A DNA stretch of 64,000 nt from Alphaproteobacteria bacterium. Its GTDB lineage: Bacteria; Pseudomonadota; Alphaproteobacteria; SHVV01. Positions within the stretch are counted from its first letter, which is position 1. Each line of letters begins with the position of its first letter. Below the pieces are notes generated by a model. That model was not told the DNA's origin and searched no databases. It saw nothing but the letters and a program-made list of their open reading frames with translations. This document shows positions 48,702 to 50,132 of the stretch, in pieces. Location of the stretch: NCBI GenBank assembly GCA_965261735.1, contig OZ253470.1, positions 4,320,001-4,384,000 of the forward strand. Direction: 5' to 3'. A program made the position numbers and the translations under genes.

Positions 48702-50057
48702 GGTGTGGGCAGGTCGGAGGACGAGTAAGGGCAAACGGTCGACCGAGACGGGATCGGGAAAACCAGCGGTGGGTCAAGGGGCTTTCAAGCCCGCAATATT
48801 GATCTTGGACCCGGTTCGCGCATCTCCATACGGGCCTGCGGCGTCAAACCAGCCGCATCATGAGGCCGGACAGATGACCGCACCTGACCACATGCCCCGA
48901 GACGTTCAAAGCTTGCCTATCCGGTTTACACCCACACCCACTAGGGCTAGAATGGGCGCAACCCGGATATAGGGGAGCGCGCCATGGATGTTCTCGACCG
49001 CGCCGATCTCCCATTCCCGCATTCGCTACCCGAGTTCCAGCGACTTTTCCCCGATGATGCGGCCTGCGCCGCCTACCTGGAGAAAGCCCGCTGGGGAGAC
49101 GGCTTTGCCTGCCCGCACTGCGGCACGGCGGGAGAGCCGTTCCACTTTGAAAACCGCCCTGGCGTCCTGCGCTGCCGCAAGTGCCGCCAGAACACCGGGC
49201 TGACGGTGGGAACAGTGATGGAGCGTAGCCACACTCCGCTGAACGTCTGGTTCTGGGCCGCTTATCTGGTCGCCAGTCAGACGCCCGGCATGTCCGCCGT
49301 GCAGTTTCAGCGGCAACTTGGTCTTTCGCGCTACGAGACGGCCTTTCAAATTCTCCACAAGCTCCGCTCGGGCATGGTGCGGCCCAACCAAGACAGGATC
49401 GGTGGACAGCCCAAGAACCATGTTGAGGTGGACGAAACCTGGGTTGGCGGGCGAACGCGTGGGGAAGGCCGTGGTGTTCACCACAAGGTTCCCGTCTCCT
49501 GTGCCATCGAGGTGCGTCATCGAAAGCCGGGCACCAAGCTCGACAACCGGAAAGACGGACGCTATGCCGGACGCGTTCGGCTCGCCGTCGTGCTCGACCG
49601 TAGCGCCGAGTCGCTCTGTGGGTTCGTCGAGAGCACCGTCGCGCCGCGATCGCTGATCGTTACTGACGATTGGAGCGGCTATGCTGGCCTCGGTAAGCGC
49701 GGCTATGAGCACTTCGCTGTTGCCGAGTGTGGTGATCCAGAGGTTGCCGAGCAATACCTGCCGATCATCCATCTGGTTTTCGCCAACCTGAAGACGTGGC
49801 TGATCGGTATCCACCACGGCGTTAGCCACCAGCACCTACAAGCCTACCTCAACGAGTTCACCTTCCGCTTCAACAGGCGGTTCTACCCGTTCAGCGCCTT
49901 CCGCTCATTGCTCGGCATCGCGGGCGACACCTCTGCTCCAACCTATGCCGAGCTTTACTCGGGAGAGTGGTGGCACCCTACATGTAGCGGTCATGGGCGT
50001 TAACCGGATAGGCAAGGTTCAAAGATATGCTTGCATCAACGGAGGCGTCCACAGATG
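48702..50057 (+). ncRNA. Orphan IS1111 3' end with a second bridge/seekRNA allele (48702-48911 plus 50025-50057), split by IS1595
   Basis: Collinear homolog of 27336-27577 (reverse strand), including the GGAGGCGTCCACAGATG end. Confidence 0.8.
48912..50016 (+). mobile_element. IS1595-family element, complete (CDS 48984-50003)
   Basis: IRs as above; 8-bp TSD GTTCAAAG; 339-aa transposase with Zn ribbon. Confidence 0.96.
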
Positions 50058-50132
50058 ACCCCCCCCCATGGTTTGTTCCCATGACCTGCCCGTAATCGAC
50101 ATCCGCACCGAAGGCCCGCTCGACTGCATCAG

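Follow-up and report, generated by a model that had tools for sequence, protein, structure and literature searches.

Elements of the IS1111 group are defined by a DEDD transposase, subterminal inverted repeats and a long non-coding region (NCR) downstream of the transposase gene (PMC11187229). According to Siddiquee et al. (2024, PMC11187229), this region encodes a seekRNA in which the segment that matches the target's top strand lies 5' of the segment matching the bottom strand, the two matches overlapping in the target; this RNA is needed, in cis or in trans, and can be reprogrammed. Durrant et al. (2024, PMC11208160) discovered bridge RNAs through guide-target covariation and predicted that 93% of IS1111 elements carry one in their right end. 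Here we describe a fragment of such an element, called copy 2, in a 64,000-nt stretch of an alphaproteobacterial genome (the window, meaning the whole stretch analysed, G000:C1:4320001-4384000, from a single-contig genome of 5.03 Mb; positions are those of the window unless given as genome positions). Copy 2 is very probably the decayed right-hand end of an IS1111-group (IS110-family) element carrying a one-base-variant guide, and intact elements with this variant, the T allele, sit at matching sites.

A sequence-only reading of the window had recognised copy 2 by its likeness to a complete element at 27338-28713, here called copy 1. A BLAST search with copy 1 against the genome found four A-type copies with at least 97% identity (including copy 1 itself), 14 full-length B-type copies with about 82%, one complete C-type element at genome 647533-648963, and several fragments. 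The parts of copy 2 that carry the argument are the following.

48702..48911, + strand: 3' non-coding region (putative gene for a seekRNA/bridge RNA) from an IS1111-group element of the C type that has lost its 5' part; identity is 95.7% over 210 nt with the C-type element at genome 647533-648963, 88.9% with copy 1 and 98% with 13 copies in another genome, G001.
48768..48776, + strand: right-target (top-strand) guide GGTGGGTCA; it occupies the 5' side of the predicted target-binding internal loop, and its reverse complement TGACCCACC is compared with right flanks of the form TGACCCC.
48792..48801, + strand: left-target (bottom-strand) guide CGCAATATTG; base 48797 (T) is the sole difference from the common CGCAAAATTG.
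48824..48829, + strand: 5' donor segment CTCCAT, reverse complement of the left end ATGGAG; it fits at 6/6 positions in 35 A- or C-type elements and at 4-5/6 in the other 24 of 59.
48870..48877, + strand: 3' donor segment ACAGATGA, which reads as the predicted circle junction: right end ACAGA, core TG and the opening base of the left end.
50025..50055, + strand: last 31 nt of copy 2, within which the right subterminal inverted repeat GGAGGCGTCCAC lies at 50041-50052; positions 50017-50062 are 97.8% identical over 46 nt to the C-type element.
50056..50130, + strand: core TG (50056-50057), then the right flank ACCCCCC..., 75 bp left over from the left end of an IS21-family element and followed by an IS6-type element; homologous right flanks are found at L003/L074 and in 10 G001 copies.

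The sequence-only reading had presented copy 2 as a second allele of the guide RNA of copy 1. Copy 2 does align with the 3' region of copy 1 (88.9% over 208 nt with the reverse complement of 27338-27577, and 94.4% over the 36-nt tail), keeps both donor segments at the positions proposed, and differs from copy 1 in both target segments, which read CGTGGTACA and CGCAAAAATG in copy 1. The variant left guide is real, and the partner lies elsewhere. Because the transposases of the A, B and C types are 81-85% identical to one another (copy 1 against the C type: 85% of nucleotides over the element and 84.8% of amino acids in the transposase), copy 1 and copy 2 count as two IS species, not as alleles of a single element. 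The guides of the C-type element are GGTGGGTCA and CGCAAAATTG. The right-target guide of copy 2, taken by the sequence-only reading to be new, is the normal C-type guide and differs only from that of copy 1; it follows that a single base of the left guide, T at 48797, separates copy 2 from its sister, and at the level of sequence the real allele pair is the C type (CGCAAAATTG) and copy 2 (CGCAATATTG).

Intact relatives with the same left guide carry the case. An RNA-scaffold pattern scan of 185,579 species genomes gave 44 loci with 46 matches, and a search for left junctions in five genomes gave 29, of which 22 have a readable guide; the remaining seven (L081, L083, L086, L089, L091, L092 and L093) belong to interrupted or truncated elements. 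Guide and flank are identical over the 8 junction-proximal bases in all 22 readable junctions (15 with CAAAATTG, 4 with CAAAAATG, all in the window's genome, and 3 with CAATATTG). The sister guide CGCAAAATTG stands at CAAAATTG flanks in 15/15 readable elements, 14 of them in G001 and one in the window's genome. The left guide of copy 2 was found in five other elements from four other genomes (L046, L067=L008, L069, L088 and L100), and the left flank is CAATATTG in all three for which it can be read. L084, which is the same as L046, is a complete element of 1381 bp with the CGCAATATTG guide and the left flank TTCAATATTG; L088 is also complete, has both guides of copy 2 and is flanked on the left by TGCAATATTG; L100, in G001, has both guides as well, is cut after the target loop and has the left flank TTCAATATTG. 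The right flanks of these three elements begin TGACCCCC. G001 holds both alleles, each at its own matching site. For elements with this guide the sequence-only reading had predicted a left flank related to CGCAATAT, and no complete copy with an unrelated one was found, two complete elements and one partial element agreeing with the prediction.

Within the window's genome, copy 2 holds the only CAATATTG guide. A 5' orphan of the C element type (89.8% identical to C) at genome 3228348-3228608 has the left flank GTTCAATATTG; it and copy 2 were considered as possible halves of one element, and the two have no junction sequence in common. As a separate observation, 8.3 kb before the window, at genome 4311560-4311690, a solo 57-nt C-type left end (98%) stands behind a tandem duplication of AATCGTTGTTAACGGCGGAGGAATAATGATGG; the flank of this solo end at genome 4311631, GGAATAATG, fits no guide in the window's genome.

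Concordance was also tested across alleles. The window's genome and loci L001-L079 provided 59 distinct guide-plus-flank events; copy 2 was excluded, because an IS1595-family element splits its RNA from its end. Events with no left end 1000-1400 nt upstream, or with no right end within 260 nt, were set aside, which leaves 42/59 for the left and 55/59 for the right. For the left guides (7 alleles), the true pairing is the unique best of 5040 permutations; for the right guides (12 alleles), the identities add up to 76.8, where shuffling gives 48.2 on average and none of 200,000 shuffles reaches the observed sum. The alleles compared have quite different targets, with TG, CG and one CA core and with pairs such as AACCG/TTCG, GTAAGCG/GGTGCG and CGGGACG/TGCCGCC, among others. 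On the donor side, segments of the ACAGATGA type agree, in 58/59 complete elements and at 8/8 positions, with the sequence made up of the last 5 nt of the right end, the core and the left end's first base, and the four sequence variants of this segment each change together with the ends of their own element. The anatomy of these elements, the concordance of guides with flanks and with element ends across alleles, and the context of the targets are all direct observations. Together with the 22 concordant left junctions, they give substance to the proposal of a naturally retargeted guide that co-varies with its flank. In another genome, one allele (L036, L042 and L058) is of a mixed kind: its left flank leads to a CG core, the right junction and the right-target guide read CA, and its two target guides disagree on the second core base.

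The ends of IS21-family elements carry multiple terminal repeats, and these repeats form the target context. All 13 C-type copies of G001 lie in IS21-family ends, 22 or about 56 bp inside the termini (host element: IstA, NF033546, 297 bits; IstB, PF01695, 4.4e-75). Ten of them occupy the second of two left-end direct repeats (TGTTGTTCGGCGTGGAATATTGACCCCC...TCGGCGTCCAAAATTG^ACCCCCC) and three the first right-end repeat (TGTCAATCGGCGTCCAAAATTG^ACCCCC). Beside these three, the next repeat, GGCGTGCAATATTGACCCCCC, is unoccupied; it is exactly the target predicted by the sequence-only reading and adjoins the occupied CAAAATTG site. The homologous first repeat at L046 reads TTCAATATTG and holds a T-allele element, and L088 sits in the second right-end repeat, TGCAATATTG. 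The direct repeats of IS21 termini occur in versions ending in CAAAATTGACCCCC and CAATATTGACCCCC, and the A-type target CGCAAAAATG^TACCACG is arranged in the same way (TGTCAACGGCGGCGGGAATATGTACCGG.GCGGCGGCGCAAAAATG...). By titles and the opening lines of abstracts, a literature search showed no paper naming IS21 ends as a target of IS1111 elements; such targets may nonetheless be published already, and the supplementary tables of PMC11187229 and PMC11208160 may list them.

The remaining flank of copy 2 belongs to the same context. As had been noticed, it reads TG-ACCCCCC at 50056-50064, and TGACCCCCC agrees at 8/9 positions with the guide reverse complement TGACCCACC, which fits the right flank at 6-8 of 9 positions in all 17 events with the GGTGGGTCA guide. 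Its homologues at L003/L074 and in the 10 G001 copies run on into the IS21 IstA gene. Up to about 50130 the right flank is unique in the genome, where no uninterrupted paralogue of the host element was found. The site most like it, L003/L074 in G002, holds an element cut at C-type position 429, with no 5' part within 7.7 kb upstream. The left flank that copy 2 has lost cannot be inferred or recovered from these sequences.

Some further sites were noted in the course of this comparison. At genome 1929335 (+) and 1929687 (-), about 350 bp apart and inverted, lie the unoccupied candidate sites GGAAAATTGACCCCC and TTCAATATTGACCCCC, the second of which fits the guides of copy 2; together they resemble the ends of a small element derived from IS21. 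At L011 (about 117-1520, G002:C4), and likewise at L024, L035 and L051, a further IS1111-type element lies inside a C-type seekRNA gene at GGGCAAACG^GTCAATCG. The guides of this inserted element, CGCGCAAACG and TTTTGACCG, fit the insertion site, so that a member of the family would be naturally programmed against the guide-RNA gene of a sibling. At L069 (C-type, T guide) and L039 (B-type), the same foreign sequence, AGATCCTATGAGGCGAATCC... followed by an open reading frame (ORF), stands directly after CTCCATAC at the same point of the donor loop, which suggests another site-specific element targeting the conserved RNA gene.

For the RNA itself, 14 of 30 distinct RNA-region sequences were aligned, one or two per allele, omitting those interrupted by insertions. 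The RNAalifold consensus of these 14 alleles has a first domain with a long stem, an internal loop and a closing GGCTT/AAGCC hairpin, the right-target guide lying on the 5' side of the loop and the left-target guide on its 3' side; in the second domain, the donor segments flank a GGCC/GCGGC hairpin. As modelled, this is the two-loop layout of bridge and seek RNAs.

Several points weigh against the reading as a whole or qualify it. The permutation figures overstate independence because the elements compared are related, and 14 of the 15 CAAAATTG cases come from one genome. The fit on the right is imperfect: position 7 of the right guide mismatches the flank in 17/17 events, L038 fits at 5/9 and the element at genome 239045-240054 at 3/9, and the right flanks of B-type elements average 5.3/9. 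As a bare string, the 9-mer GGTGGGTCA is not beyond chance (one match in the window against 0.40 expected, at least one match in 31/100 shuffles), and the 10-mer CGCAATATTG has one match against 0.05 expected (5/100 shuffles); chance is exceeded by the placing of the two motifs, both of which fall in aligned guide slots of a conserved RNA gene, and by the allele-level permutation tests made without copy 2. Compensatory (double) changes affect 3/45 consensus pairs, in alleles that are too similar for this test (mean column identity 84%), and, folded as a single sequence, the RNA does no better than its shuffles (z = -0.72, with 49/200 shuffles folding at least as well). No Rfam 15 family reached its gathering score in the region of copy 2; over 48600-48950 the best match at E <= 10 was a chance one, RF02467, with 12.1 bits and E = 4.4. 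A scan of 48500-48950 returned no sigma-70-like promoter and no terminator, and copy 2 has neither a transposase gene nor a left end or junction promoter.

For the variant base itself, a simpler history would be that T at 48797 is a neutral point mutation acquired after the element had died, copy 2 having inserted as an ordinary CAAAATTG C-type element whose likeness to the CAATATTG elements is coincidental. Contigs from three RNA-library runs (X1, X2 and X13) match 48702-48911 or 48744-48911 except for T>A at 48797 and lead on to an intact right end, so a C-type element one base away exists; near-identical C-type sequence is present in these contigs, which lack the T allele. Run X5, of unrecorded library kind, has both letters at 48797, with a depth of 152.3 of 211.3 for the other letter; these data are stored as contigs, from which neither transcription nor ends nor rare variants can be read, and DNA may be present in RNA libraries. 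Among JGI metagenome contigs there was no match to the exact T-allele stretch or to a looser A/C-type pattern, which rules out exact matches there only. The backbone of copy 2 (GACGAG..., GGTTCGCGC) is that of the G001 C-type copies, and the other CAATATTG elements L046, L069, L088 and L100 read GACGGG... (GGTCTGCAC where readable). The T either arose twice, moved by recombination or is a post-mortem mutation in copy 2. The right flank of copy 2 is homologous to the left-end second-repeat context, whose G001 occupants have the CAAAATTG guide and the left flank TCCAAAATTG, and copy 2 itself may thus have been inserted with the A allele. One-base mismatches are also tolerated, the CAAAATTG guide standing at CAAATTTG or CAAAGTTG flanks in three distinct events at four loci (L047, L055/L078 and L060). 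We nevertheless hold a post-mortem mutation to be unlikely. By an arithmetic estimate, a random single change in 210 nt would give this base at this place about once in 630; the same guide recurs in the elements of four other genomes described above, with all three readable left junctions matching; and the window's genome contains a same-type left end at a TTCAATATTG flank (3228348), with no other CAATATTG guide to place it.

Target choice could also reside in the protein or in DNA structure at IS21 termini, the guide-like segments being passive copies of the target left by imprecise excision or gene conversion. RNA from the element was not observed in this analysis, structural covariation is weak, and the targets contain the palindrome ACCCCCTATTGGGGGT, all of which would suit such an origin. 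It is nonetheless very improbable. The segments belong to a conserved scaffold some 1.2 kb into the element, and they co-vary with the flanks over 7 and 12 alleles with unrelated targets. One is sense and the other antisense to the flanks, in the order published for IS1111 elements, and experiments on related elements described in the same source show that the NCR RNA is needed and can be reprogrammed (PMC11187229).

We therefore retain the decayed end of an RNA-guided element as the best explanation, with a mechanism drawn from the published family. Elements of this group would move as circles that are inserted by a DEDD recombinase, which would be steered by a non-coding seekRNA/bridge RNA encoded downstream of the gene for the transposase. 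In the target loop two guides would overlap on the core TG, and in the donor loop CTCCAT and ACAGATGA would read the abutted element ends. The natural targets are the short direct repeats inside IS21-family termini; the guide of the common C-type RNA is CAAAATTG, and copy 2 has the one-base variant CAATATTG, also present in intact elements at CAATATTG sites. RNA-DNA pairing as the cause, and the chemistry of recombination, are inferred by analogy with that family.

A wider scenario is conceivable and a good deal more tentative. Because the backbone of copy 2 differs from those of L046, L069, L088 and L100, the A/T switch at the sixth base of the left guide may have arisen more than once; sister elements might then divide the CAAAATTG and CAATATTG repeats between them, the orphan RNA gene could act in trans with the resident C-type transposase, and the clade might be a specialised parasite of IS21 ends. 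If so, the orphan guide would give this genome a second specificity, which would account for the CAATATTG-flanked left end at 3228348, and the clade would also target the guide-RNA genes of its own members (L011, L035 and L051).

No new mechanism is involved, since guide-target covariation underlay the discoveries of 2024. The pair is a compact natural case in which a single change in a guide goes with a single change in the target, both versions lying side by side in one host element. The CAAAATTG and CAATATTG alleles with their sites would form a ready-made pair for measuring single-mismatch discrimination by an IS1111-group recombinase, which bears on the specificity of genome editing with bridge RNAs and seekRNAs. 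IS21-family termini would also be added to the mobile-element targets of the family.

The surroundings of copy 2 show how it was reduced to its present form, and copy 1 preserves the complete anatomy.

47606..48704, + strand: unrelated repeat with an rve_3 integrase ORF at 47756-48484 (PF13683); its right end is the cut point of copy 2, and a second copy lies at genome 4429437-4430538 (98.4%).
48912..50016, + strand: IS1595-family element inside copy 2, with terminal inverted repeats and a transposase ORF at 48984-50003 (PF12762, PF12760, NF033547).
27338..28713, - strand: copy 1, a complete 1376-bp A-type IS1111-group element with its transposase at 27609-28631, guides at 27504-27512 and 27479-27488, and flanks CGCAAAAATG and TGTACCACG.

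Both copies of the unrelated repeat terminate at ...GGGACAGGT, and the homology of copy 2 to the C type begins at 48702, where this repeat ends, in agreement with the orphan status and lost left flank that had been proposed for copy 2. The IS1595-family element has produced an 8-bp target duplication, GTTCAAAG, at 48904-48911 and 50017-50024, and separates the RNA region from the terminal 31 nt. Matches to this element number more than 100 genome-wide, all near-identical; in the window they lie at 46106-47157, 48912-50016 and 27157-27247, the last being a 5' piece that adjoins the flank of copy 1, and an internal deletion has shortened the copy at 46191-47135 (314 amino acids against 339). The flanks of copy 1 fit its own guides at 10/10 and 9/9 positions. 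Its transposase has 340 amino acids (aa), contains PF01548 and PF02371 and scores 322 bits (cutoff 140) with NCBIfam NF033542, 'IS110 family RNA-guided transposase'; the motif GLVPRQHTTG is found in this protein and in the C-type transposase of 342 aa, and sister transposases resemble ISCro4 (PDB 9t56, 2.8e-11) and IS621 (8wt6, 1.3e-8). The subterminal inverted repeats are 12 bp long; GTGGACGCCTCC is separated from the left end by 5 nt and GGAGGCGTCCAC from the right end by 3 nt, and each of the 22 right ends detected in the genome has the latter. In copy 1 the transposase gene is followed by an NCR of about 270 nt (stop at 27609, element end at 27338), of which copy 2 is the homologue. The complete sisters thus combine a DEDD (RuvC-like) transposase within the range of 330-350 aa, with PF02371 and the motif GL-P----S/TG, subterminal repeats within 7-17 bp and a long downstream NCR, as in the IS1111 group; an NCR downstream of the transposase gene and repeats of 12 bp set them apart from the IS110 group proper.

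Three other features of the genome touch these elements or their neighbourhood. A 5' fragment of another IS1111-type element at 41881-42307 (+), 77% identical to copy 1, has a left flank ending in CAGTAAGCG that fits CGCGTAAGCG, the left guide of the element at genome 239045-240054, which is truncated at its 5' end. The sole Rfam hit in the window is a group II intron D1-D4 (RF02005, 103 bits, E = 4.1e-28) at 36529-36742 (-). The B-type copies at genome 3603582, 3617002 and 3635947 share the same left flank in all three and the same right flank in two, which indicates segmental duplication and not independent insertions.

Among members of the superfamily that target other mobile elements, IS4321 and IS5075 are reportedly examples, and ISEc21 is described as targeting IS3-family genes. 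The elements described here resemble such members in inserting specifically into other mobile elements, and differ in that the hosts are IS21-family termini and that two one-base guide alleles fit two versions of the repeat. According to Siddiquee et al. (PMC11187229), ISEc11, ISKpn4, ISPa11 and ISPst6 have the same kind of DEDD transposase of about 340 aa with the GL-P----TG motif, the subterminal repeats and the long downstream NCR, and in these seekRNA elements, as here, the top-strand match comes first, the matches overlap in the target and there is no duplication beyond the shared core. Unlike them, the present elements target IS21-family terminal repeats with a TG core, and copy 2 is a fragment without a transposase gene, known from its sequence alone. 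The IS621 bridge RNA (PMC11208160; 8wt6) is similar in its two-loop form reading target and donor, in its natural guide-target covariation and in its related transposase (E = 1.3e-8). In comparison with IS621 as described there, the RNA is in the right end instead of the left, the strand matches come in the opposite order, long subterminal repeats are present, and a hairpin lies between the donor segments, which do not form a simple internal loop. RNA genes of the IS110 family apart from a transposase gene have a parallel in the solo copies of the Ssr9 small RNA of ISPpu9 in Pseudomonas putida (PMC12288879); copy 2 differs from these in appearing to be a visible truncation product bounded by other IS elements and not a free-standing RNA gene. 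Every IS1111 seekRNA character that we tested for in the DNA is present, with strand-ordered guides that vary with the target and donor segments that match the element ends, and this places copy 2 and its sisters as putative seekRNA elements beside those described in the IS1111 group.

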